Of a stretch of DNA of 64,000 bases, positions 1,479 to 61,374 are shown in pieces; positions within the stretch are counted from its first letter, which is position 1, and each line of letters begins with the position of its first letter. The notes beneath the pieces were generated by a model. The model was given only the letters and a program-made list of their open reading frames with translations. It was not told the origin of the DNA and did no database searches. The translations under genes and the position numbers were made by a program. This stretch comes from a bacterium (GTDB lineage: Bacteria; Patescibacteriota; UBA1384; CAILIB01): NCBI GenBank assembly GCA_037131105.1, contig JBAXRQ010000001.1, positions 458,263-522,262 on the forward strand, given 5' to 3'.

Positions 1479-2448
1479 TACCGTAGTCCCTTGGACCAAG
1501 AAATTGGATGAGCCGGAGATGCTGCCTACCCGCAACGGGTTTGGTGAAGGGCTAGTTGAGGCTGGTAAAGATCGTAACGTGGTTGCGCTCTGTGCTGATC
1601 TGACTGAGTCTATTCGTATCGAGGCTTTTGCAAAAGCATACCCAGAGCAGTTTGTAGAGATAGGGGTGGCCGAGCAGAATATGATGGGTATAGCCGCTGG
1701 CTTGGCACTTTCCGGGAAAATTCCCTTTGTCGCCAGTTATGCTGTCTTTAACCCCGGCCGCAACTGGGATCAGCTGCGCGTCTCAGTCGCTTATTCCCAG
1801 GCTAACGTAAAGGTCATTGGCGCCCATGCCGGCCTTTCGGTCGGTCCTGACGGGGCTACCCACCAGGCTTTGGAGGATATTGCTATTACCCGGGTGCTGC
1901 CCGGCCTTGTAGTCATAGCTCCCACCGACATCCACGAGGCCCGCAAGGTGGTCAAGGCCGTGGTTGACTACAAAGGGCCGGTTTATATTCGTTTCGGGCG
2001 TGACAAGGTACCTACGATCACTACCGCGGATACTCCCTTTGTCATCGGCAAGGCTAATCTCTTCAGAGCTGGCAAGGACATTACTATCTGTGCTAACGGC
2101 GCCATTGTCTACGAAGCCTTGAAAGCTGCCGAAATGCTGGCCAAAAAGAAGATCTCTGCCGAAGTGTTGGCAGTGCCTACCATAAAGCCTCTAGATGAAA
2201 CGGCCATTCTTAGCTCGGTTAAAAAAACTGGAGGCATGGTCACGGCCGAGGAAGCCCAGATAAACGGGGGGTTGGGCAGTGCCATCGCTGAGCTACTAGG
2301 AGAGAAGCATCCTGTGCCCATGGAACGTATAGGAGTGAAGGATACTTTTGGTGAGTCAGGTACAGCCGGCGAACTGATGGACAGGTATGGCCTGCGCTCC
2401 ACCGATATCTATGAAGCAGCGCTCAGGGTCGTAGCTCGTAAGTCTTAA
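1471..2448 (+). CDS. tkt: Transketolase, C-terminal (pyrimidine-binding plus C-terminal domain) subunit.
   Basis: 325 aa. Contains VEIGVAEQNMMGIAAGLA and FGESG, typical of the transketolase C-terminal section. Translationally coupled to the N-terminal subunit. Confidence 0.9.
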   Translation: MSNTVVPWTKKLDEPEMLPTRNGFGEGLVEAGKDRNVVALCADLTESIRIEAFAKAYPEQFVEIGVAEQNMMGIAAGLALSGKIPFVASYAVFNPGRNWDQLRVSVAYSQANVKVIGAHAGLSVGPDGATHQALEDIAITRVLPGLVVIAPTDIHEARKVVKAVVDYKGPVYIRFGRDKVPTITTADTPFVIGKANLFRAGKDITICANGAIVYEALKAAEMLAKKKISAEVLAVPTIKPLDETAILSSVKKTGGMVTAEEAQINGGLGSAIAELLGEKHPVPMERIGVKDTFGESGTAGELMDRYGLRSTDIYEAALRVVARKS

Positions 2449-5677: not shown

Positions 5678-7141
5678 ATGAAACGCTCAGAGCTCTTCTT
5701 TTCGGTGTTGCTGATCCCGGTAGACTATCTGGCCCTATTGGTGGCCTTTCTTCTTTCCTATGTACTGCGGGACAGCTTCTCGCCAGTTTCTCCTACAAAT
5801 CTTGCCGGAGTGGCTGACCGACTTCAGTACAATCCTGATACGGCCCTGGTCATCTCTCAGTCTCAATATCTGCACTACCTGTATTTTATTATTCCAGGGA
5901 TGCTGGTGGCATTTGCCTTGGTCGGTCTTTACGGTATCAGAGTCAATTACTCCTGGTTTACCCGGGCCTTGCGCATATTGATAGGGGTTTCCGTAGGGGA
6001 GTGCTTTATTCTGTTGTTGTTTCTGTTGAGGAAGGACTTCTTTCTGCCTCGCTCAACGGTGCTGTATAGCTGGGCGCTGGGAACACTATTTGTCATAGCT
6101 GCTAGGCTGATAGTACTTGGAGCACAACGCTTTCTCTATAGGTTCAATATAGGCGCGGTACGCGTGGCCGTAGTGGGTGACGATAAGGCTGCCAAGCGGG
6201 TAGGGGAGCAGTTGGGGAAGGGAAAGGCCGCCTCCTATCGGTTGGTACGTCAGTTTGCCAGCCTGCCTGTCGCCCAACTTGCCCGACACGTCACCCGAGA
6301 GGAGATGGATCAGCTGGTAGTCGCAAGCGGCAGCTACTCAAACGATGATCTGATCGAGCTTCGCAGCATTTGTCTTGAAGCCCATGTTGCCTTTAGCTTT
6401 GTGCCTTCATTGCTTTCGGCATTGCAGAGCAGTAGTTTTACTGTGCAAAATATTGCCGACGTCCCCATGATTGAGGTAAGTCCCACGCCTCTTGAGGGAT
6501 GGGGGAGAGTACTCAAGCGTCTTTCCGACCTCATCGGTGGTACGCTGCTGCTGATTTTATTCTCACCGCTCATGCTGCTTGTGGCTATTTCCATTAAGCT
6601 ACTTTCACCGGGTCCCCTGATATACCGTCACAGGCGCCTCGGTCGTAACGGTACGGAGATTAAGGTCTGGAAGTTCCGTAGTATGTATTGGAAATACTGC
6701 ACGGGGGTAGGTACCGACGGCGACCGGAGTTTTGAAGAGCTGCTGGCTACTGACCCCAAGCTGGCTATTGAGTGGGAGCAGAGCCATAAGCTGAAGAACG
6801 ATCCTCGTATAAGCATCCCTGGAAGATTCCTGCGACGTACCAGCCTTGATGAGCTCCCCCAGCTGTTCAATGTCCTGTCGGGCTCGCTCAGCTTGGTCGG
6901 TCCCCGGCCAATCGTGGAAGAGGAGATCCGTAAGTACGGCAAGTACGCAGGCCTGCTGTTCTCGGTCCGACCGGGTATGACCGGTCTTTGGCAGATTAGC
7001 GGACGTAATGACACTACCTATATCGAGCGAGTCGGGCTGGATGTTACATATATTGAGCATTGGAACCTGCTTCGCGATATAGGGATTATGCTTCGCACTA
7101 TTTTGGTGCTGGTGGGACCGCGCAAGGACGGGGCTTATTAA
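5678..7141 (+). CDS. Undecaprenyl-phosphate sugar phosphotransferase (WbaP/WcaJ-type bacterial sugar transferase) with N-terminal TM segments.
   Basis: 487 aa. C-terminal domain has PGMTGLWQISGRND and LSLVGPRP, hallmark motifs of the bacterial sugar-transferase family. Hydrophobic N-terminus. Confidence 0.85.
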   Translation: MKRSELFFSVLLIPVDYLALLVAFLLSYVLRDSFSPVSPTNLAGVADRLQYNPDTALVISQSQYLHYLYFIIPGMLVAFALVGLYGIRVNYSWFTRALRILIGVSVGECFILLLFLLRKDFFLPRSTVLYSWALGTLFVIAARLIVLGAQRFLYRFNIGAVRVAVVGDDKAAKRVGEQLGKGKAASYRLVRQFASLPVAQLARHVTREEMDQLVVASGSYSNDDLIELRSICLEAHVAFSFVPSLLSALQSSSFTVQNIADVPMIEVSPTPLEGWGRVLKRLSDLIGGTLLLILFSPLMLLVAISIKLLSPGPLIYRHRRLGRNGTEIKVWKFRSMYWKYCTGVGTDGDRSFEELLATDPKLAIEWEQSHKLKNDPRISIPGRFLRRTSLDELPQLFNVLSGSLSLVGPRPIVEEEIRKYGKYAGLLFSVRPGMTGLWQISGRNDTTYIERVGLDVTYIEHWNLLRDIGIMLRTILVLVGPRKDGAY

Positions 7142-7159
7142 TTCTTTACACCACACCCT

Positions 7160-8230
7160 ATGAAAACTATTGCTTTGGTACAGGACTGGTTGACGGGATT
7201 TGCCGGGGGTGAGCAGGTGCTGCTTGCCCTTCATGAGATGTATCCGGACGCGCCGATCTACACCAGTCTCTATGCCCCTGAGAAGGTGCCCCAGTTTGCC
7301 AATGCTACGGTGATTCCGTCCTATCTTCAGAAGGTCCCAGGACTACTCACCAGGCATCAGACGGCCATTCCTCTTATGCCGCTTGCCTTTGAGTCTTTTG
7401 ACCTTAAGGGCTTTGACGTGGTGATTTCAGTCGGCGGCGGACTATCTAAGGGGGTGATCACCCAGCCTGACCAGACCCATATCAGCTACTGCCATACCCC
7501 TATGCGGTACCTCTGGCACATCGGAGGTGACTCCCGCGCCTCAGGCAGCTGGTTGAAGTCGCAGGCCGCCCACAAGCTGAGGATTTGGGACGTTGTCTCG
7601 GCCAGCCGGGTTGACCGATTCCTGGCTAACTCCCAGACCGTAGCTGATCGCATTGCCAAGATCTATCGGCAGGACGCCACCGTGGTATATCCGCCGGTCA
7701 ATACGTCGCGCTTTCATGTGGCCACAGACAAGCCAGGGGATTATTTCCTGAGTGTGGGCCGGTTGATCAGTTACAAGAGGGTGGACCTGGCGGTTGAGGC
7801 ATGTATCAAGACCAAACAGCCTCTTAAGATCGCCGGTACCGGACCTGAATCCGATAGCCTGAAAGCCATGGCTAAGAACGCCCCGTGGATAGAGTTCCTC
7901 GGACGTGTACCCGATGCCGAACTTGAAGGCCTCTATCAAGGAGCCCGGGCCTTCATTTTTCCGGCTGAAGAAGACTTCGGCATAGTGCCGGTAGAGGCCA
8001 TGAGCGTCGGCCGGCCGGTGATCGCCTTCGGCAAGGGAGGGGCCACTGAAAGTGTGGTGGAAGGAGTCTCGGGTACGTTCTTTGACAAGCAGGAGGGCGA
8101 CAGCCTTGGCGAGAAGTTGACTGCGTTCAAGGATGCTGACTGGGATCCCGCTGCCATCCGCCAACAGGCAGAGCGTTTTGACGTAGAACTATTTAAGAAA
8201 ACCATGAAGGAAATCGTGGATGCTGCCTAA
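7160..8230 (+). CDS. Glycosyltransferase, family 4 (GT-B, group 1).
   Basis: 356 aa. EDFGIVPVEAMSVGRPVIA matches the E-x7-E GT4 motif region. Confidence 0.8.
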   Translation: MKTIALVQDWLTGFAGGEQVLLALHEMYPDAPIYTSLYAPEKVPQFANATVIPSYLQKVPGLLTRHQTAIPLMPLAFESFDLKGFDVVISVGGGLSKGVITQPDQTHISYCHTPMRYLWHIGGDSRASGSWLKSQAAHKLRIWDVVSASRVDRFLANSQTVADRIAKIYRQDATVVYPPVNTSRFHVATDKPGDYFLSVGRLISYKRVDLAVEACIKTKQPLKIAGTGPESDSLKAMAKNAPWIEFLGRVPDAELEGLYQGARAFIFPAEEDFGIVPVEAMSVGRPVIAFGKGGATESVVEGVSGTFFDKQEGDSLGEKLTAFKDADWDPAAIRQQAERFDVELFKKTMKEIVDAA

Positions 8231-28186: not shown

Positions 28187-28216
28187 CAGGCTCCTCTCGG
28201 GGAGTCTGTTTTTTAA
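28187..28216 (+). terminator. Rho-independent terminator after fusA.
   Basis: CAGGCTCC at 28187-28194 pairs with GGAGTCTG at 28201-28208 (8 bp, includes two G-U pairs), followed by TTTTTTAAT. Confidence 0.6.
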
Positions 28217-28275
28217 TAAGAAGTTAACATTAGTTGGTTATACTGTGAGGCGAACCGTATCCGCTAAGACATCTT

Positions 28276-28968
28276 ATGGAGGTAGTACCCTATACTATTC
28301 GAGAACACTCGGGATATATCATTCATGACACTCCTCCAGAGCGGGGACTGCCGATTCGTAGACTTCAGAGTGAAGGTGGAGAGGTGCTCTCTACCAATGA
28401 GCTACTGCAGATAGCCCTGGGCAACGTCGATGGGATGGAGGAGGGGGTGAGGGAGTACGGCTCCCAGTTCCTTACTACTCTCCATAGTGTGAATGATATA
28501 GTTGAGTCACTCCATACTGACCATCTCCAGGCAACACGTTTATTAGCGATTCTGGCCCTTGGGAAGAGGTTGTACGCTGCTGAGCAAGGTTCGATGGCAC
28601 ATATCAGAGGTATCGAAGATATTTACCACCATTATCGGTCAATGTCTCAGTTGGCTAAGGAGCAGCTGCGGGTAGCCCTGATAAATAGTCGCTACCAGCT
28701 TGTCCATGAGGATACCCTGGCCATAGGTAGTGTCGAATATATGCACATAAGCCCTAGGGACGTGTTCCAGGCGGCTGTTGAGAGGAGGGTTACGGCTATT
28801 GTCTTGGTCCATAATCACCCTAGTGGGGACGCCACCCCTAGTCAGAGCGACAAGGAGTTTACCCAGGAGATTATGGCTGCTGGCAAGCTGCTCGGAATAG
28901 CGCTGCTTGACCATGTAATCATTGGAAGAGAGGGGTACGGCAGCTGTTTGGGGTCCGAAGAACACTAG
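28276..28968 (+). CDS. radC: RadC-family JAB/MPN-domain protein (UPF0758).
   Basis: 230 aa. Contains the JAMM-like motif HNHPSGDATPSQSD...LLDHVII. The N-terminal region is HhH-like. Confidence 0.8.
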   Translation: MEVVPYTIREHSGYIIHDTPPERGLPIRRLQSEGGEVLSTNELLQIALGNVDGMEEGVREYGSQFLTTLHSVNDIVESLHTDHLQATRLLAILALGKRLYAAEQGSMAHIRGIEDIYHHYRSMSQLAKEQLRVALINSRYQLVHEDTLAIGSVEYMHISPRDVFQAAVERRVTAIVLVHNHPSGDATPSQSDKEFTQEIMAAGKLLGIALLDHVIIGREGYGSCLGSEEH

Positions 28969-50787: not shown

Positions 50788-51778
50788 ACGCCTGCTAGCC
50801 ATCCTGGTATCGCTCTACCTGGTTTTTGGTGTGGGTATTGTCGGTATGGCGGCGAAAGTGTGGGCATCCTCATCCCCGACTCTTCACATCTCCGTTCTAG
50901 GGGCATCTTCTGACTCCACGGTCCTTGCTGATGTCTCAGCGGCGCCGATACTTGCCAGCTATCCTACTCTTGATGCAACTTTGCTTCCGAGGATCCTTTC
51001 CAAGGAATATTCGCTGTATGACGTCGACAGTGGCAGGACTCTGGTGAGCAGCCAGATGCTGGACCCGGTTCCCATCGCCAGTACTACCAAGATGATGACC
51101 ATTCACCTTGCCACACGGTATCTGATCCCTTCCGACACGCAGACCGTATCACTGGCCGCCGCCAAGCAGCCGCCGGAGAGTTCTCTTATGGGCATACATA
51201 ACGGCGAGCGAATTACGGTAGAACAGCTTATGTACGGCGCTATGATGGTGTCAGGAAATGATGCCGCCTACGCCTTGGCAGAGCAGAGCGGGGGAGTGCT
51301 GCTGAACAACCAGTCGGCTAGTAGTAGTGAAAAGATCGCCAGATTCGTGGTTGAGATGAATGATGAAGCCAAAGCTCTTGGCATGAGCTCAACCAAATAC
51401 GTCGAACCAGTGGGCATCAATGATGAGGTACGCTCAAATGCTGTTGACCTAGCCAAGCTGGCTAGTATCTGGGTGCGTGACCCTGAGGTTGTAAAGATCA
51501 TAGGTACCCCGACCATCTCATTCAATAGCGACAGCGGGTACCACTATGACATGAAGGACTCTAACCGACTGGTGGCAGATTATCAGTACCAGGGAATAAT
51601 AGGGGGTAAGACCGGCTATACCGATGCAGCCGGGCATTGTTTGGTAAATGTGGCAACAAGAAACGGCCACACGCTGGTAGCCGTCATTCTGCATACTAAT
51701 TCTCAGACTAACGAGGCATCTGCCCTAGAGAGTCGAAAGCTCTTAGATGCTGGGTTCAGCCTTACGCACTGGAATTAG
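50759..51778 (+). CDS. D-alanyl-D-alanine carboxypeptidase (peptidase S11, PBP5/6-like), membrane-anchored.
   Basis: 339 aa with SxxK, SGND and KTG motifs. Confidence 0.85.
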   Translation: MKSDAFMPRKRLLAILVSLYLVFGVGIVGMAAKVWASSSPTLHISVLGASSDSTVLADVSAAPILASYPTLDATLLPRILSKEYSLYDVDSGRTLVSSQMLDPVPIASTTKMMTIHLATRYLIPSDTQTVSLAAAKQPPESSLMGIHNGERITVEQLMYGAMMVSGNDAAYALAEQSGGVLLNNQSASSSEKIARFVVEMNDEAKALGMSSTKYVEPVGINDEVRSNAVDLAKLASIWVRDPEVVKIIGTPTISFNSDSGYHYDMKDSNRLVADYQYQGIIGGKTGYTDAAGHCLVNVATRNGHTLVAVILHTNSQTNEASALESRKLLDAGFSLTHWN

Positions 51779-54024: not shown

Positions 54025-56439
54025 TTATTGTACGACCAATGATACTAATCGACCTGGGACGATGATCTGCTTGGCGACTTCCTTGCCGGCCAGGTGTTCC
54101 TGGACCTTGGCATCTGCCATGACCAGCTTCATGAGCTCCTCGTCCGAAGTGTCAGCAGGTACGGTCAGTCGAGAGCGCAGCTTTCCATTGATCTGGACAG
54201 GGTAGACTACCTCATCTTCCACGAGGAAATTTTCATCATATGAAGGCCACTCCGCCAGGCTGCAGAGGCCCTTCTCACCCTGCTGAGAGTAAAGCTCCTC
54301 GGTGATATGCGGGGCGAAGGGATTTAGGAGAATAAGTAGGCGGATATACCCGTCCTTGGAGATGGTTTCCAGCTCGGATAAGCTGTTAAGAGCCTCCATC
54401 ATACTGGCTACCGCTGTATTGAACCTGAAACCTTCAATGTCCCCGGTCACCTTCTTGGTCAACTTATGTAGAATGCGGTTCTCGGCGTCGGAAGGAGTCT
54501 CACTGTTGACCTTGGCAGAGAGTCCCCAGATCCGTTCCAGAAACCTACGTACTCCGACAATACCCTTGGTACTCCAGGGCTTCTCAGTGCCGAATGGCCC
54601 CATGAACATCTCATAGGCCCGTAGGGTATCGGCGCCGTACTCGGCTACTACGACGTCGGGATTGATGACGTTGCCCTTGGACTTGGACATCTTGTTGTGG
54701 TCGGGACCCAATATCATGCCCTGGTTCTTCAATGTGGCGAAGGGCTCGCTGAAGGAAAGCAGGCCGGCGTCGAAGAGCACTTTGGTGAAGAAGCGGGCGT
54801 AGAGCAGGTGCATCACGGCATGCTCAGCGCCGCCTACGTACATGTCTACCGGAAGCCATTCCTGTACCAACTCCGAATCAAAGGCCTTGTCAGAGAGACC
54901 GGGCGTTGGAAAACGCAGGAAGTACCAGCTTGAGCAGACGAATCCGTCCAGAGTATCGGTCTCGCGCTGCCATTCCTGACCAGTTTCAGGATCGGTGTAA
55001 CGCTTCCAATCGATGGCCAAGGTAAGAGGTGACTGGCCGGTAGGCAGGAACTGGGCGTCATCAGGAAGTTCAACGGGAAGCTGGTTTTCAGGTATCAGAT
55101 GCTCGCCGCCGTCCTTGTCATAGGCGATGGGAATGGGAGCGCCCCAAAAGCGTTGGCGGGAGACCAGCCAGTCACGCAGACGGAAGGTAACCTTCTTTCG
55201 GGCCAATCCCTTTTCGGCCAGCCACTCTATGATCCGGGGACGTGCTTCCTCCGAAGTAAGGCCGTCAAACTGCTGTGAGTCAAATAGTATGCCCTGGCCG
55301 CTAAAGCAGCATTCCAAGGAGCGGATAGCCTCAGCATCTTTTCCGTCGGAGGGAAGCAAAGTGGCCTTCAGGGGGATGCCCATTCGCTTTGCCAGGGTGA
55401 AGTCACGTTCGTCATGGGCGTCGGCAAAGACAGCGCCGCTGCCATAGTGGCCGAGCACGAAGTCGGCAATCCAGACCGGAATGGCCTCTCCGGTCGCCGG
55501 GTTGGTGGCGTAGGATCCGGTAAACACGCCGGTGATGTCCTTGGCCAGGTCAGTGCGCTCGAGATCGTTCTTGAGAGTTACCGCTTCCAAGTAGGAAGCG
55601 ACGTCATTTTTCTGCCCAGAGGTGGTAAGACTCTCCACCAAGGGATGTTCGGGAGCGATGATAAGGAAGGTCCCACCGAAGAGCGTGTCTATGCGGGTAG
55701 TGAAGACGGTGATGGCCTCAGTATGGCCTACCAAGGGGAAGTCTACTTCAGCGCCTTCCGAGCGACCTATCCAGTTGCGCTGCATGGCCTTGATCTGCTC
55801 AGGCCAGTCCAGCGTGTCCAGATCGTCGATAAGCCTGTCGGCATAGTCGGTGATCTTGAAATACCACTGTTTCAGCTCTCGCTGCACCACCGTAGTGCCA
55901 CAGCGATCGCATTTGCCTCCCACGACTTGCTCATTGGCCAGCACAGTCTGGTCCTTGGGGCACCAGTTGACTAGTCCATTTTTACGGTAAGCCAAGCCAC
56001 GTTCGTACAGCAGCTCGAACAGCCACTGGGTCCAACGGTAATAGGCAGGATCAGATGAGTTCAGCTCCTTGTTCCAGTCATAGCTGATGCCTGTCTGGCT
56101 GAACTGGCGTTTGAACTCTAAGATGTTCTTGGCAGTAGAAAGAGCCGGATGGACACCGCTCTTTATAGCGAAGTTCTCAGCTGGCAGGCCGAACGCGTCC
56201 CAACCCATAGGATGCAGCACCTTCTTGCCCTGCATACGGGCGGCCCGGGCCACCACGTCGGTAGCGGTATAGGGAAGCATGTGGCCCACGTGAAGGCCGG
56301 CACCTGAAGGATAGGGGAAGAAGTCGAGTATGTAGAGCTTCTTGTCGCCCTTCTTAAGGAGGGGCGTCTCAAAGGCGTTCTCGTCATTCCAACGCTTCTG
56401 CCACTTCGGCTCTATCTCCAAATGGTTGTATGCTGCCAC
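54025..56439 (-). CDS. leuS: Leucine--tRNA ligase.
   Basis: 804 aa. HMGH, KMSKS and the CP1 editing domain. Confidence 0.97.
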   Translation of the reverse strand: MAAYNHLEIEPKWQKRWNDENAFETPLLKKGDKKLYILDFFPYPSGAGLHVGHMLPYTATDVVARAARMQGKKVLHPMGWDAFGLPAENFAIKSGVHPALSTAKNILEFKRQFSQTGISYDWNKELNSSDPAYYRWTQWLFELLYERGLAYRKNGLVNWCPKDQTVLANEQVVGGKCDRCGTTVVQRELKQWYFKITDYADRLIDDLDTLDWPEQIKAMQRNWIGRSEGAEVDFPLVGHTEAITVFTTRIDTLFGGTFLIIAPEHPLVESLTTSGQKNDVASYLEAVTLKNDLERTDLAKDITGVFTGSYATNPATGEAIPVWIADFVLGHYGSGAVFADAHDERDFTLAKRMGIPLKATLLPSDGKDAEAIRSLECCFSGQGILFDSQQFDGLTSEEARPRIIEWLAEKGLARKKVTFRLRDWLVSRQRFWGAPIPIAYDKDGGEHLIPENQLPVELPDDAQFLPTGQSPLTLAIDWKRYTDPETGQEWQRETDTLDGFVCSSWYFLRFPTPGLSDKAFDSELVQEWLPVDMYVGGAEHAVMHLLYARFFTKVLFDAGLLSFSEPFATLKNQGMILGPDHNKMSKSKGNVINPDVVVAEYGADTLRAYEMFMGPFGTEKPWSTKGIVGVRRFLERIWGLSAKVNSETPSDAENRILHKLTKKVTGDIEGFRFNTAVASMMEALNSLSELETISKDGYIRLLILLNPFAPHITEELYSQQGEKGLCSLAEWPSYDENFLVEDEVVYPVQINGKLRSRLTVPADTSDEELMKLVMADAKVQEHLAGKEVAKQIIVPGRLVSLVVQ

Positions 56440-56557
56440 ATCAATTCGTTAGGGTTTGCTGCCAGTATAGCAGAAAATTACTCTGTCGGGAGTAGGGAGA
56501 TTGACAGTGGGCCGCTGACTTTTGCATACTGTCTCTGTTCACTAGCTAATCCTCATT

Positions 56558-56956
56558 ATGCGCCAGCCCGCCCTTCGCAAGCTCGACCTCCAGATCCTCT
56601 CTTTGCTCAGCGAGAAGCCCGGACATGGCTACGCACTGCTTCACCGGCATCACCTGACGGATTCCGAAGTCACTTCTTCCCAGATGTACTATGTCCTCCG
56701 CAAGCTGGAAGGACTAGGACTCACCCAGGTAAAGTGTGAGGCCTCCTACAAGGCGCCCGATAAGTCGGTGCATCTGCTTTCCGCCAAAGGTCGAAGGTTC
56801 CTTGAAAGGGACGTTGTCATGCGGATCAAGACGCTTCGTCAGAAGTCGGTCCAGCTCTTTGAGTTATATAAGGAAAACCAGGAGCAGCTGGCAGCAAGTG
56901 ACCGCCTTATGCGTCATCATGCATCCGGTATCCTATCCCGTAGATTGTCTCGATAA
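56558..56956 (+). CDS. PadR-family transcriptional regulator.
   Basis: 132 aa. Winged-helix signature L.ILSLL...GHGYAL......YYVLRKLEGLGL. Confidence 0.7.
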   Translation: MRQPALRKLDLQILSLLSEKPGHGYALLHRHHLTDSEVTSSQMYYVLRKLEGLGLTQVKCEASYKAPDKSVHLLSAKGRRFLERDVVMRIKTLRQKSVQLFELYKENQEQLAASDRLMRHHASGILSRRLSR

Positions 56957-57575
56957 GCTTGCCTCCCGCCGGAGGCAGCTTTCGGCGCAGGCGGTTCATA
57001 TGTACGTCGACCGGGTTGCCCAGGGGGTAGTCTTCGTATCCGCGGATCTCCTCCCAGATCTGCATGCGCGAAAGCACGATGCCACGTCGTCGTATGAGCA
57101 GCCAGAGCAGGTCGAACTCAGACCGGGTCAGTCGTAAGCTCTTCTCTAGGCAGACCGCACTCCGTCTCATGGCGTCGATACGGAAGCTTCTGGTGGTGTG
57201 TGAAGAATCAGGATCCGGCCCAGAACGGTATTCCCGCTGGATGATGCGGTTGGCTAGCTCGGTGAACGAGCACGGCTCTATGAGGCATTCGTCCAACCCA
57301 AGCTCCAAAAGGCGGGCTCGTTGCAGTCCTGACTGGGCCTGAGTAAGTGCCACCATATAGCCGGTGCCTCCCTTTGACTTCCATTCGCGGTAGAAGTGGG
57401 CAGCATCCTCAGGCGAATGCCCGCGCAGCAGTATGGCGGCGTACCTATCGGTCATGGCCAGGTAGAGCGTGCGTTCGGCGGTGTAGGCGAGCTCCGATCG
57501 CAGCCCGCACTGGGAGATGATGCGTTCCAGCGGCTTGCCGGCCTCTGGAGTGGGGGAGTAGATTAGCGTCTTCAT
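56907..57575 (-). CDS. OmpR/PhoB-family winged-helix regulator with a degenerate (pseudo-) receiver domain.
   Basis: 222 aa. C-terminal trans_reg_C motifs LTRSEFDLLWLL, VDVHMNRLRRKL and GIGYR. In the N-terminal receiver-like region the phospho-acceptor position reads AILL rather than D-(L/V)-(I/V)-L-(L/M)-D, and the acidic pocket is missing. The 3' end overlaps the PadR gene convergently by 50 nt. Confidence 0.7.
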   Translation of the reverse strand: MKTLIYSPTPEAGKPLERIISQCGLRSELAYTAERTLYLAMTDRYAAILLRGHSPEDAAHFYREWKSKGGTGYMVALTQAQSGLQRARLLELGLDECLIEPCSFTELANRIIQREYRSGPDPDSSHTTRSFRIDAMRRSAVCLEKSLRLTRSEFDLLWLLIRRRGIVLSRMQIWEEIRGYEDYPLGNPVDVHMNRLRRKLPPAGGKLIETIYGIGYRMHDDA

Positions 57576-57707
57576 GGCGACAGGTTACGAGATATTGGCT
57601 TAACAATAGTGAAGGAATATTAACTCTCAATTAACTTTTGCTTCCTAGGGTTCGGAGGTGGTCATAATGATTTACCAGAAAAGCATTTTGTGATAGGATT
57701 CGGCCAC

Positions 57708-57723
57708 TAGCCTCCTTTAGGGG
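57708..57723 (+). promoter_or_regulatory. Inverted repeat CCTCCtttagGGGAGG in the divergent promoter region upstream of the PlsY-fusion gene. Nearby is the A/T-rich element TATTAACTCTCAATTAAC at 57619-57636.
   Basis: Read directly. Candidate operator for the adjacent PadR or OmpR-like regulators. Confidence 0.3.
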
Positions 57724-57749
57724 AGGTTGAACCTTGCACAATTCGGAAC

Positions 57750-59432
57750 GTGTTCGATGTGCGAAAAAGTGAGAAGATCGTGAATATAGTTGGATTGTAT
57801 GCCGTACTGGCAGGAGTAGTGCTGGGGTCAATTCCTTTCGGAATCATCTTTACTAAGATGCGGGGAGGGACCGACCTGCACAAGAAGGGCTCGGGTAACA
57901 TCGGGGCCACTAACGCCTTTAGATCAGATCCACTGGCCGGGGTACTTACCCTACTTGGGGACTGTCTGAAAGGCTTTGTGCCCTGCTATGTCCTGCATCG
58001 CCAAGGTCTTGATCAGTACGCCTACCTGGCAGCAGCTGGGATAGTCTTCGGAGCCAACTGGTCAATATTTCTGCTCTGCAAGAAAGGTGGGAAAGGCATC
58101 GCCGCCCTTATGGGGGTCGGCCTCGCTCTTCAGCCACTTCTTGCACTGGTAAGCTTCGGGGTGTTTTTATTCCTGGTGCGTATCAGTAAGTATGTTTCAG
58201 TCGGCTCCATCGGTGCTATGGTTGTGGTGACCTGCTGGGGCATATTCCTTCTAGGGGGACACCATAACCCGCAGGGATGGCTCTTACTAGTCGCAGGACC
58301 CCTGGCCATCTGGAAGCATCGTGAGAACATCGACAGACTAACCCACGGTTGTGAGAAGAAGTTTTCCCTTAAGAAGCAGCCGGCGCCGGCTGGACATTGC
58401 CACAGGGTGGCCGGATTCATTATCCATGCCACCACTGATGATCCGGATAAGCTAAAGGAGAAGGCACTGGAGCTGGTCAACGGGAAGCGAAAGGCAGAAT
58501 GGTTAGTCAGGCGCATGCCCGGCTGGCTGATACGATCCTTGTTACCCTTCATTCCGCCCCGGGTAACTGGAAACACCCAGTCGTGGGTAACCATTGCAGA
58601 CGGCAGCAGCATTGAGATGATCTTCGTGTCAGTATATATGACTCCGAAGCAGATGATGCGTTGGCAGGGGCTGGCGGTAAGGAAGATAGTCAAGGCTGCC
58701 TTCATGCTTGAACGCAGGGGTGCCAGCCATATCGGACTGGGAGCCTATACCTCCATTGTTGGTAAGAGGTGGGATATGGGCGCCGGCGACGCGGTGCTGG
58801 TGCGGTTCAGAGAGTTCGGTGGTACGGCGATGATCACCACGGGCAATGCCCTGACGGTCTTTACCGGCATCCATGCCCTAAAGGTTCTTGCTGCTCAGCA
58901 AAGAAAGGACCTTAAGGACTGCAGGGTGGCGTTCGTGGGTCACCGTGGCAACATTGGCACAGTGGGAACCAGGATACTGTGCACCATGGTGCCTGAGGAG
59001 AATCTCATCCTGATAGGAAGAGAGGATTCACAGGAGAGACTGCTCGAAGCCGATTTCATCATCGTCGCCACCAGCAGTGAAGTGCCTCTCGACGAACGCT
59101 ACGTAAAGAAGGGAGCCTGCATCGTCGACCTTTCACGTCCTCGGCAGACCGAGAAGATGGAAGGGTGCACGGTGGTGGAGGGTGGCGTCATTACGGGTGC
59201 AGAAGGTACCTATATCGCCATTCCCCATAACCTGGATACAAATGAAATGCATGCCTGTACGGCTGAGACAGCGCTTGAGTGTGTGATGGGAAGCAAGGAA
59301 AGCCACGTGGGACCGATCGACCCGAACTACGCCATGAGGATAGGTCGGGCCATGGGCACACAGGGTTTGAGTATCAGTCGTCTTCGAGGCGCCGATGACG
59401 GGGCCTACCAAGGAGGTGAGAACAGTGGATAG
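57750..59432 (+). CDS. plsY: Fusion protein: glycerol-3-phosphate acyltransferase PlsY (about residues 1-205) joined to a C-terminal domain of about 350 aa resembling the cyanobacterial acyl-ACP reductase (AAR) family.
   Basis: PlsY motifs GSGNIGATN, DCLKG, KGGKGIAA and HRENIDRL. Compared from memory with S. elongatus AAR, the C-terminal domain matches along its length: GFIIHATT vs GLIGHLTS; LGAYTSIV vs LGGFTSII; ITTGNALT vs FTTGNTHT; Rossmann VAFVGHRGNIGT vs VAVVGATGDIGS; EADFIIVATS vs EADFIVWVAS; EMHACTAETALECVMG vs QMFACFAEAMLLEFEG. GTG start. The true start may be the GTG at 57780. Confidence 0.7.
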   Translation: MFDVRKSEKIVNIVGLYAVLAGVVLGSIPFGIIFTKMRGGTDLHKKGSGNIGATNAFRSDPLAGVLTLLGDCLKGFVPCYVLHRQGLDQYAYLAAAGIVFGANWSIFLLCKKGGKGIAALMGVGLALQPLLALVSFGVFLFLVRISKYVSVGSIGAMVVVTCWGIFLLGGHHNPQGWLLLVAGPLAIWKHRENIDRLTHGCEKKFSLKKQPAPAGHCHRVAGFIIHATTDDPDKLKEKALELVNGKRKAEWLVRRMPGWLIRSLLPFIPPRVTGNTQSWVTIADGSSIEMIFVSVYMTPKQMMRWQGLAVRKIVKAAFMLERRGASHIGLGAYTSIVGKRWDMGAGDAVLVRFREFGGTAMITTGNALTVFTGIHALKVLAAQQRKDLKDCRVAFVGHRGNIGTVGTRILCTMVPEENLILIGREDSQERLLEADFIIVATSSEVPLDERYVKKGACIVDLSRPRQTEKMEGCTVVEGGVITGAEGTYIAIPHNLDTNEMHACTAETALECVMGSKESHVGPIDPNYAMRIGRAMGTQGLSISRLRGADDGAYQGGENSG

Positions 59433-60450
59433 ACGTGATAGAAGGGTCCTAGTCATAGGAAAGAACTTTGGGGGAGCTATCGCTACTCTTCTCGTGAAGA
59501 ATGGCGTCGATGTCACCCTGCCCTATAGACCAGGGGGAAAGCTTCGTCCTGTCGACGATGTGCTGGCGCGAAACCTGCATACGCCGACCCTTGAAGACTT
59601 TTTTGCTACTGAGCACCGTCGGTTTGACTTCTGTGTCATTGCAACGCCGATGGCAGATCTAGTCGGTGTCGCAGAGAAGCTCAAGAAGACGAATGTGGAA
59701 ATAGGGACGTTTGTCCTGGTCCAAAAGGCTATGGACGAGGCGATGCGCGGTCCTTATGCCGTGGCGAGCGAGGTACTACCTGGTGCTGAGATCATACTCT
59801 GTACGGGCGCCGCCTTTGCTGGTGACCTGGCAAACGGCTGCTATACCCGCATGCTACTGACGCATAGGGAGGGCCACTGCAAGCCTGCAGAGGATTTTGC
59901 ACGCCTATTTGCCGGAGGCCATATCCAATGGCACTACTATGACAACTTCGAGGTGGTGACCGTTTGCAATACAGTGAGGACGGTAACATCTTATCTGCTT
60001 GGGGCGGTCACCCAGTACTTAAGAGAAGTTGGTCTGGCCAATGAGACTACCTTGGCAAACGTCGTAGCCTCAATACAGGGCGAGGGCGTCGAGATAGTTC
60101 ATGCCTTGCTTCCTAAGCTTGATCCGACCTTCTTTCGTTCAAAGATCGGTTGGATTATGCTTGCAGACATGGGTTTGTGTCAGAGCTCTACTAGCCGGAA
60201 CCGTGCAGCGGGTGAAGATGACGTGATGAGACACTTCCATGGGAGTCGTGCCGGTAGGGACCTGGGTGTCGTGGAGGCCCTCGCAAATACGGGCGTGGTA
60301 GCTCAAGGCCTGGAAAGGCGTCCCGGTGACTGGATGGAACAGTTTCCCTATACAGCATCCGGCTATTTGTTCCGGATAGGTACTTATAGCATCGAGGATG
60401 CTGCCAGGAAGATCTTCAAAAGGATTCAAGGTGATGACTATGGGTCATGA
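59395..60450 (+). CDS. Highly divergent NAD(P)H-dependent glycerol-3-phosphate dehydrogenase (GpsA) homologue.
   Basis: Compared from memory with E. coli GpsA, similarity runs along the length: VLVIGKNFGGAIATLLVKNG vs VIGAGSYGTALAITLARNG; DPTFF...ADMGLCQSSTSRNR vs [26 protein letters not shown]. The GxGxxG motif is altered to GKNFGG, and the GGAVKNV catalytic Lys region reads CNTVRTV. The probable start is the GTG at 59425, preceded by AAGGAGG, which overlaps the upstream gene by 8 nt. Confidence 0.55.
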   Translation: MTGPTKEVRTVDRRDRRVLVIGKNFGGAIATLLVKNGVDVTLPYRPGGKLRPVDDVLARNLHTPTLEDFFATEHRRFDFCVIATPMADLVGVAEKLKKTNVEIGTFVLVQKAMDEAMRGPYAVASEVLPGAEIILCTGAAFAGDLANGCYTRMLLTHREGHCKPAEDFARLFAGGHIQWHYYDNFEVVTVCNTVRTVTSYLLGAVTQYLREVGLANETTLANVVASIQGEGVEIVHALLPKLDPTFFRSKIGWIMLADMGLCQSSTSRNRAAGEDDVMRHFHGSRAGRDLGVVEALANTGVVAQGLERRPGDWMEQFPYTASGYLFRIGTYSIEDAARKIFKRIQGDDYGS

Positions 60451-60582: not shown

Positions 60583-61374
60583 ATGAGCGATACCGATCAC
60601 CTTCATAAGCAGCTTGCCGAAAAGGATGCCGAGATAGCCGAACTTAAGGCTGAGGCCCAGGAGAACAAACGCCTGCGCGAACTGGACGAAATGAAGAGCA
60701 CCTTTGTCTCCACCGCCTCCCACCAGCTTCGTACCCCGCTTTCAGTCATCAAGTGGGTGCTGTCAGTACTGGAGTCAGATACCGAGATCAAGAAGAACCC
60801 CAGCAGCAGTCAGATGGTCAGTCAGGCCTCCCAAGGCGTGGATCGCATCGTGGACGTGGTAAACGACCTTCTGAATCTGACAAGAATCAAGGACGGCCGT
60901 CTTCCCTTCAATGCTGAGCCCACCGAACCCAGCGTGCTACTGGAACAGTCGGCCAAGGAGCGCGAGGCCCTGGCAGCCAGTCGGGAGATTGCTTACTCCT
61001 TCAAGATCGAGCCGAACATGCCCAAGTGCCAGCTTGACCCCATCCTGGTGAAAGAGGCCATGCGCAACCTGCTTAATAATGCCTTTGACTATAGTGGCGA
61101 AAAGGGGAAGGTCTCAGTCACCGCCGCGGTAAAGGATGACGACCTTACTATCGTTGTTACAAACACCGGGCCCGGCATCCTCAAGGAGGAGCATGAGAAG
61201 ATCTTTGAGCCGTTCTTCAGATCACCCAAGGCCCTGCAGCTGCATCCCGACGGCAGTGGACTAGGCTTATACCTTACCAAGGCTATCGTCACTGAGCACG
61301 GTGGCACTGTCAGCTTTACCAGCGAGCCGGATAAGGAGACTGTCTTTACGGTGAGTTTCCCCATGAAGAAATAG
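60583..61374 (+). CDS. Cytoplasmic histidine kinase with no sensor or TM domain.
   Basis: 263 aa. A short N-terminal coiled coil, the H-box STASHQLRTPL, and HATPase_c N, G1 and G2 boxes (NLLNNAFDYS, GSGLGLYL). Confidence 0.8.
   Translation: MSDTDHLHKQLAEKDAEIAELKAEAQENKRLRELDEMKSTFVSTASHQLRTPLSVIKWVLSVLESDTEIKKNPSSSQMVSQASQGVDRIVDVVNDLLNLTRIKDGRLPFNAEPTEPSVLLEQSAKEREALAASREIAYSFKIEPNMPKCQLDPILVKEAMRNLLNNAFDYSGEKGKVSVTAAVKDDDLTIVVTNTGPGILKEEHEKIFEPFFRSPKALQLHPDGSGLGLYLTKAIVTEHGGTVSFTSEPDKETVFTVSFPMKK

Follow-up and report, generated by a model that had tools for sequence, protein, structure and literature searches.

The region examined here lies within a 64,000-nucleotide stretch of contig JBAXRQ010000001.1 (GenBank assembly GCA_037131105.1, positions 458,263 to 522,262 of the forward strand) from a bacterium of the Patescibacteriota, the whole of which is referred to below as the window. 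Between window positions 56558 and 57575, two genes for transcriptional regulators face one another and share their 3′ coding ends. One encodes an atypical OmpR/PhoB-family regulator, hereafter ARR, whose receiver-like domain has lost the canonical phosphorylation site, and the other encodes a protein of the PadR family. The pair consists of the following features:

56907..57575, minus strand: ARR, 222 amino acids, with a pseudo-receiver in residues 1-117 and a winged helix at approximately residues 129-222.
56558..56956, plus strand: PadR-family winged-helix regulator, 132 amino acids, convergent with ARR (Pfam PadR, PadR-like structures).
56907..56956, both strands: 50-nt antisense overlap of the 3′ coding ends of ARR and PadR, from the coordinates of their open reading frames (ORFs).

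The output domain of ARR was recognized by Pfam, residues 145-218 matching Trans_reg_C (PF00486) with 77.3 bits against a cut-off of 26.2, in agreement with the OmpR/PhoB winged helix that an original prediction, made from the sequence alone, had assigned to this minus-strand gene. The protein further aligned from approximately residue 15 to residue 218 with full-length OmpR-type models of NCBIfam (CopR/CusR, HprR, QseB and PmrA). Residues 13-83 of the plus-strand ORF matched Pfam PadR (PF03551) with 30.8 bits against a cut-off of 27, and the best-matching solved structures were the PadR-like proteins 2esh and 4esf, the alignment with 2esh spanning residues 12-103. The predicted PadR assignment therefore stands, and the gene recurs in relatives. 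Public annotation concurs on both proteins, naming ARR (MEI6477905.1) a ‘response regulator transcription factor’ and its neighbour (MEI6477904.1) a ‘PadR family transcriptional regulator’; the longest contig to bear the two measures 949 kb. A homologue search of a 5.8-billion protein set with the PadR protein returned the query itself as the sole match; its counterparts in relatives were found by tblastn within the collected loci. Like the short (~110-residue) single-domain PadR proteins LmrR and TM0937, the window protein has an N-terminal winged helix followed by one C-terminal helical segment. It differs from them in the weakness of its family match (30.8 bits), in a tail of approximately 17 extra residues encoded antisense to the ARR C-terminus, and in the lack of a neighbouring efflux or detoxification gene. 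The predicted 50-nt antisense overlap was found as described at 56907-56956. Mis-calling of the ORF ends is ruled out, since the ARR C-terminus matches its homologues up to the final residue, all of them ending in ...GIGYR/Q-x-x-x-A, and since overlaps recur in relatives.

The receiver-like half of ARR departs from the canonical pattern at nearly every position of the active site. The acidic pair (E9 and D10 in PhoB) is replaced by S7 and P8, and the phospho-acceptor position (PhoB D53) is occupied by R51. Going further than the original prediction, which had noted the loss of the acidic pair and of the phospho-acceptor aspartate only, E100 takes the place of the catalytic Lys (PhoB K105) and C97 that of the switch Tyr, the conserved Thr being retained as T78. 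The placement of R51 came out the same in three independent alignments, namely pairwise alignments with OmpR-family structures of the Protein Data Bank (PDB), a MAFFT alignment with Escherichia coli PhoB, and an end-to-end alignment to a profile built from canonical OmpR regulators. In the last of these, residues 1-222 of ARR aligned with 170 bits and R51 fell in the Asp column. The proposed check, an alignment of the receiver region, thus returned R51 and no conserved phospho-acceptor Asp, and a corrected start or frame that would restore the aspartate was rejected on the strength of the same full-length coverage.

The Pfam receiver model Response_reg (PF00072) gave no match to ARR at E≤0.1 and was likewise missing from the precomputed Pfam calls of its six closest homologues. 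The AlphaFold2 (AF2) model of ARR, with a mean predicted local distance difference test score of 90.8, nevertheless adopts a (beta-alpha)5 fold followed by a winged helix-turn-helix (wHTH), its five strands (residues 2-6, 26-30, 47-51, 74-78 and 96-99) alternating with five helices and R51 standing at the end of beta3. Foldseek searches with this model placed full-length OmpR-family regulators on top, the aspartate-less redox sensor RitR first, with the atypical CosR, HP1043 and GlnR among the matches. Set against a canonical response regulator, ARR has the DNA-binding domain and lacks the receiver profile match, the Asp, the acidic pair and the Lys; in having a receiver-like fold without a phosphorylatable Asp, it answers to the description of an aspartate-less receiver. 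The alignments and the predicted fold support the view that ARR is an OmpR-type protein that would not be phosphorylatable at the canonical site, and its identity as an atypical factor of the OmpR family is to us close to certain.

That the protein is an atypical regulator, as originally predicted, was further borne out by its relatives, in which the canonical phosphorylation site is missing throughout the family. When 1.84 billion cluster representatives were searched with a profile, approximately 30 clusters scored above the generic OmpR plateau. None of 32 family representatives carries the phospho-acceptor Asp, the position being taken by L, R, V, I, H and other residues. Asp is likewise missing from both positions of the acidic pair in all of them, and none retains the catalytic Lys, which is Glu in 20 and Gln in 5 of them. 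The Thr/Ser position is kept in 27 of the 32 and the switch Tyr in 26. When conservation was scored by structural element, the former active-site loops were the lowest (0.27-0.34), and higher values were found from beta4 to the beta5-alpha5 loop (0.43-0.73) and in the wHTH (0.60). Four positions are near-invariant: R86 (30/32), L90 (29/32), and G93 and P101 (32/32 each). PhoB residues R91, D100, D101, E111, R115 and R122, which we take to be the salt-bridge residues of the alpha4-beta5-alpha5 dimer, align to ARR R86, D95, E96, E106, R110 and R117.

A receiver so degraded might simply belong to a decaying, non-functional gene, as could be argued from the failure of Pfam to detect Response_reg and from the wholesale loss of catalytic residues. 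This explanation appears extremely improbable in view of the full-length, intact ORFs present in approximately 30 clusters at 50% identity, of the many near-invariant positions listed above and of the confidently predicted fold. Conservation of the alpha4-beta5-alpha5 face and of the wHTH next to divergent active-site loops is, judging from the alignment, the signature of a pseudo-receiver that is maintained under selection as a structural or dimerisation module. The ARR-family genomes that could be identified are those of Patescibacteria, including a metagenome-assembled genome of a Berkelbacteria member, and the family, a clade of its own, has to date been found in Patescibacteria-type metagenome assemblies only.

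Aspartate-less receivers make up approximately 4% of receiver domains and approximately 2% of OmpR-type architectures (PMC4395418). Among them, ChxR, HP1043, CosR, GlnR and RitR have been characterised as acting independently of phosphorylation (PMC3960148, PMC8345958, PMC12632262), ChxR being known to bind direct repeats (PMC4395418, PMC3960148, PMC12632262). ARR shares with ChxR of Chlamydia, HP1043 (HsrA) of Helicobacter, CosR of Campylobacter, GlnR of actinobacteria and RitR of Streptococcus an OmpR winged helix preceded by a receiver-like (beta-alpha)5 fold, and the missing Asp. Its R51 is a basic residue at the Asp position, a substitution class noted in PMC4395418, and, as in this class, the residues of alpha4-beta5-alpha5 are kept. 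A further likeness, to ChxR, resides in the tandem direct repeats at its own promoter, which in the case of ARR are a putative operator. ARR is, on the other hand, just 19-29% identical to the solved examples and falls in a separate clade; it has lost four of the five catalytic positions, the Thr being kept, with a family-typical change of Lys to Glu or Gln; its receiver is too diverged for the Pfam model; and it is inherited together with a convergent PadR gene. The ARR family also lacks a conserved Cys comparable to C128 of RitR. ARR is thus a lineage-restricted addition to the known aspartate-less (pseudo-receiver) OmpR class, particular in its separate clade, its Lys-to-Glu change, its frequent tandem canonical regulator and its convergent PadR partner.

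The genomic context of ARR was compared in 13 further distinct family loci (14 including the window). The conserved unit is ARR and PadR in convergent orientation, followed by leuS, which comes next in the cassette wherever the contig reaches far enough. A convergent PadR ORF was found in the window and in 11 related loci, making 12 distinct loci. The complete partner ORFs tested all exceed the Pfam cut-off, seven of them scoring 27.5-50.8 bits. Locus L003 is the sole one clearly devoid of a PadR partner, and three other loci end too early to judge. In L058 and L064, synteny continues to the genes for NusB, RNase III and a peptidase S11, as it does in the window. Upstream of ARR, L004 has an SLT-like gene and other relatives have unrelated genes. 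Two of the loci deserve separate mention. In L003, from the Berkelbacteria member, ARR (6692-7423) carries a 21-residue C-terminal extension and is separated from leuS by a PadR-less gap of 340 nt. In L039, the PadR partner (1492-1729, minus strand) is apparently split by a frameshift on a short metagenome contig and may reflect an assembly error or a pseudogene.

PadR and leuS are transcribed divergently from a 118-bp intergenic region, in which two promoter elements could be placed:

56501..56530, plus strand: sigma-70-like PadR promoter TTGACA-18-CATACT, from a consensus scan.
56464..56472, minus strand: extended −10 element TGCTATACT of the divergent leuS promoter.

Both elements recur when the PadR-leuS regions of the window and of L054, L004, L006, L041, L042 and L043 are compared. 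A TTGAC −35 core (TTGACA, TTGACG or TTGACT) is found in six of the seven regions, the short L041 region being without it, and the leuS −10 is kept in all seven as TATAGCA, read on the PadR strand, or as a one-mismatch variant thereof. A conserved palindrome that might serve as a PadR operator was not found across these regions, in which the promoter elements alone are conserved. We infer that PadR is a separate, co-inherited regulator with a promoter of its own, divergent from leuS. The TGCTATACT-like −10 precedes the leuS start by approximately 24 nt, leaving a very short leader and hence no T-box; in line with this, an Rfam scan of 56300-57900 gave nothing at E≤1, neither a T-box nor another known RNA.

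On the other side of the pair, the region upstream of ARR contains a promoter-like sequence and, superimposed on it, a repeat:

57603..57630, minus strand: sigma-70-like ARR promoter TTGAGA-16-TATTGT, a consensus match only.
57619..57636, minus strand: tandem direct repeat AGTTAAT-TGAG-AGTTAAT with an 11-bp period and perfect 7/7 identity, a putative ARR operator.

The inverted repeats that had been predicted in this shared promoter region (57576-57749) were not borne out, the best candidate returned by a repeat finder over 57540-57790 being a weak 17-nt palindrome with 71% complementarity; what the region holds instead is the perfect direct repeat. It overlaps the −35-like hexamer TTGAGA (57630-57625) and stops 10 bp upstream of the −10-like hexamer TATTGT (57608-57603). 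Direct repeats spaced by 11 bp and matching at six or more of seven positions were present in six of nine upstream regions, three of them perfect, against a mean of 1.34 and a maximum of 4 in 200 shuffles; other repeat spacings from 7 to 24 occurred in 0-3 of these loci. The consensus KTTMAT-N5-KTTMAT has one perfect match in the 64-kb window, at 57619-57636. With one mismatch or none, on the same strand and in the 150 nt preceding the ARR start, it was found in 8 of the 14 loci, the shuffled expectation for 14 loci being a mean of 0.28 and a maximum of 3 (500 shuffles). Outside the set of loci from which it was derived, the motif is perfect in L062 and present with one mismatch in L060 and L006. 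The recurrence of this direct-repeat motif upstream of the ARR gene suggests, as far as sequence can tell, autoregulation. The sole other near-match in the window (28212-28228, plus strand, one mismatch) lies 48-64 nt upstream of a gene for a RadC-like JAB-domain protein (28276-28968); the number of matches in the window being at chance level, it was rejected as a further motif site.

Pho boxes are made of 7-bp direct repeats separated by a 4-bp spacer and end 10 bp before the −10 hexamer. The window repeat reproduces this layout in its two 7-bp repeats, its 4-bp spacer, its overlap with the −35 and its 10-bp distance to the −10, the latter hexamer being itself a consensus match. It differs from the site of PhoB in the half-site (KTTMAT as opposed to CTGTCA), in that ARR is not phosphorylatable and in that the ARR site is putative.

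Our proposal starts from observed features, namely the domain identity of ARR, the loss of its catalytic residues and the family-wide pattern of this loss, the conserved cassette and the enriched motif. ARR would dimerise constitutively through its alpha4-beta5-alpha5 face, whose positions are conserved, and the dimer may then bind head-to-tail to the 11-bp-spaced KTTMAT-N5-KTTMAT over its own −35 region, so regulating its own expression. Because the layout resembles that of a pho box, activation is, by analogy, slightly favoured over repression. Taken as a whole, the picture of a phosphorylation-independent, dimeric ARR that autoregulates through the repeat at its own promoter and is co-inherited with PadR beside leuS is one in which we place moderate confidence. 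Because the genomes of Patescibacteria are tiny and encode few regulators, each conserved one is informative on gene control in these episymbionts. To the pseudo-receiver OmpR regulators, the ARR family adds a sharply delimited clade restricted to one lineage, together with a conserved partner gene and a candidate operator.

Several points weigh against this picture. The motif was first recognised visually, in 7 of the 14 loci, which makes its enrichment partly circular, and among six loci outside its derivation three carry a match. Loci in which a canonical response regulator gene and ARR stand in tandem hold a single TTCATGA at the expected −35 position, and some of the half-sites may be promoter elements or sites of the neighbouring canonical regulator. 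The Pfam receiver model misses the N-terminal domain of ARR, so that the receiver call relies on profiles of full length and on structure prediction; dimerisation, DNA binding and the sign of regulation are steps that we infer. Finally, a histidine kinase gene is found near ARR in the window genome and in its closest relative, L054, and a kinase may control ARR without the canonical Asp.

Two types of genes bear on this last point and are placed as follows:

60583..61374, plus strand: sensor-less histidine kinase, 263 amino acids, with HisKA and HATPase_c domains; its membership in the system is uncertain.
L058 2216-2914, L061 129-830, L064 4220-4918, L060 1-672 and L006 1-174: canonical OmpR-type regulators upstream of ARR.

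The kinase consists of a short coiled coil followed by the dimerisation and histidine phosphotransfer (DHp) and catalytic domains only; its closest homologues (44-50% identity), with lengths of 435-458 residues, mostly carry a GAF domain at the N-terminus. Its phospho-acceptor His motif, SHQLRTP, is intact. The idea of a degenerate kinase, raised by a G1 box reading NTGPG for DxGxG, was rejected, Asn being present at this position in 36 of 120 homologues as a family variant. The canonical OmpR-type regulators, whose receivers are intact, are encoded on the same strand directly upstream of ARR in five distinct loci. They are orthologous to one another (39-55% identity) and share just 24-31% identity with the ARRs, which indicates that the pairing is old and led us to reject the origin of ARR from a recent tandem duplication. 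The 64-kb window holds no other response regulator.

ARR might, on this basis, still receive a signal from the kinase or from a tandem canonical regulator, be it through phosphorylation of another residue, heterodimerisation or kinase binding. In L054, a homologue of the kinase (67% identity over the 45 residues available) is encoded directly divergent from ARR, the window kinase is 3 kb away, T78 is kept in 27 of 32 representatives, and the five loci with an upstream canonical regulator call to mind CmrR-CmrS-CmrT of Clostridioides difficile (PMC12632262, PMC12548384), which comprises two OmpR-type regulators, one of them with a pseudo-receiver, plus a kinase. Characterised atypical regulators that are not orphans are rare (PMC12632262). 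The likeness to cmrRST extends to the adjacency of canonical and pseudo-receiver regulators on the same strand in five related loci and to an adjacent kinase in two genomes. It does not extend to the window genome, which has no canonical regulator within 64 kb, nor to the kinase, whose adjacency is not conserved, and there is no sequence sign of orthology and no counterpart of the PadR partner in cmrRST. Signal reception by ARR is moreover rendered quite unlikely by the absence of a conserved acidic substitute for the Asp (D57 of the window protein is not conserved), by the additional loss of the Lys and of the metal-binding pair, by several loci (L004, L062) in whose neighbourhood both a kinase and a canonical regulator are missing, and by two other kinase homologues, P0096 and P0097, which do not stand beside an ARR; a linkage of kinase and ARR through the latter two was rejected. 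The kinase gene at 60583-61374 is possibly the remnant of an ancestral partner locus. More elaborate still is a scheme in which the cassette, with or without the canonical regulator, forms a minimal, Patescibacteria-specific circuit, where ARR is switched by partner binding and/or antisense interference and controls growth-linked genes such as leuS; the candidate switching partners would be the tandem canonical regulator, the sensor-less kinase and the PadR protein. We regard this scheme as improbable and retain phosphorylation-independent autoregulation as the preferred reading of ARR.

Antisense interference brings up the meaning of the 3′ overlap itself. In ten further loci, the ends of ARR and PadR overlap by 41, 44, 47, 47, 4, 4, 8, 44, 44 and 47 nt, giving a range of 4-50 nt over the 11 loci measured, which include the window and do not include L059. 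Such an arrangement could be regulatory, the two genes repressing one another through transcriptional interference or antisense RNA in the manner of a toggle. The convergent orientation is found in 12 distinct loci, eight of them with an overlap of 41-50 nt, and leaves no space for intergenic terminators. Hairpins embedded after the stops are weak, with z = −2.2 after the PadR stop and nothing significant after that of ARR, so that the candidates for intrinsic terminators inside the overlap are weak only. A toggle is nonetheless unlikely: the overlap is reduced to 4-8 nt in three loci, the PadR tail encoded within it varies in both sequence and length, the ARR C-terminus being conserved to the last residue, and abutting or overlapping ends are also seen in other convergent pairs of this compact window. 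A 339-residue ORF and the RNase III gene overlap by 4 nt (51775-51778), and the genes for a C39-like peptidase and LeuRS meet with a gap of 0 nt (54024/54025), both pairs pointing to an extreme compaction of gene 3′ ends. Because the PadR tail encoded there is not conserved, we consider the long 3′ overlap to be probably in the main a by-product of genome compaction, antisense interference across it being a minority possibility.

There remains the inference that the neighbouring genes make most tempting. ARR is divergent from an operon that begins with a PlsY-fusion gene and a GpsA-like gene, and the original prediction had proposed that both regulators are dedicated to this lipid module, with PadR sensing a lipophilic compound. 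Besides the divergent orientation, this proposal has in its favour that the 174-bp intergenic region shared by ARR and the operon holds the direct repeat, which lies 114-131 nt upstream of the PlsY-fusion start. The comparison with relatives speaks otherwise: PlsY-fusion or GpsA-like genes next to the ARR-PadR pair are found in the window genome only and in none of the 13 related loci. In the window, the ARR promoter region and the kinase gene are separated by the two lipid genes; in L054, the closest relative, the kinase gene abuts that region directly, as if the lipid genes had come to lie within a pre-existing arrangement in the window lineage only. The PadR promoter, for its part, is oriented toward leuS and not toward the lipid genes. 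Given the absence of the lipid genes from the 13 related loci and the abutting kinase gene of L054, the operon formed by the PlsY-fusion, GpsA-like and kinase genes is, on present comparisons, a lineage-specific neighbour rather than a conserved target of ARR. Dedicated control of the lipid module, unsupported by these comparisons, thus appears doubtful, and the tempting inference is to be corrected; through the shared intergenic region, the putative ARR site may still have an incidental effect on the operon in the window genome.

A few features of the lipid genes are worth recording in their own right. Between the ARR promoter region and the PlsY-fusion start, at 57710-57727 (plus strand, 22-40 nt upstream of that start), lies a 7-bp GC-rich hairpin, CCUCCUU-UAGG-GGAGGUU (core CCTCC/GGAGG); it holds a Shine-Dalgarno-like GGAGG that is too distant from the annotated GTG, and its fold z-score is −1.3. 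The ORF at 59395-60450 (plus strand) is weakly GpsA-like (21 bits, below the cut-off) and overlaps the PlsY-fusion gene by 38 nt. The latter (57750-59432, plus strand) encodes a 560-residue fusion protein with PlsY acyltransferase (133 bits) at its N-terminus and, at its C-terminus, an NAD(P)-binding domain that resembles long-chain acyl-ACP reductase and the N-terminus of PigE.

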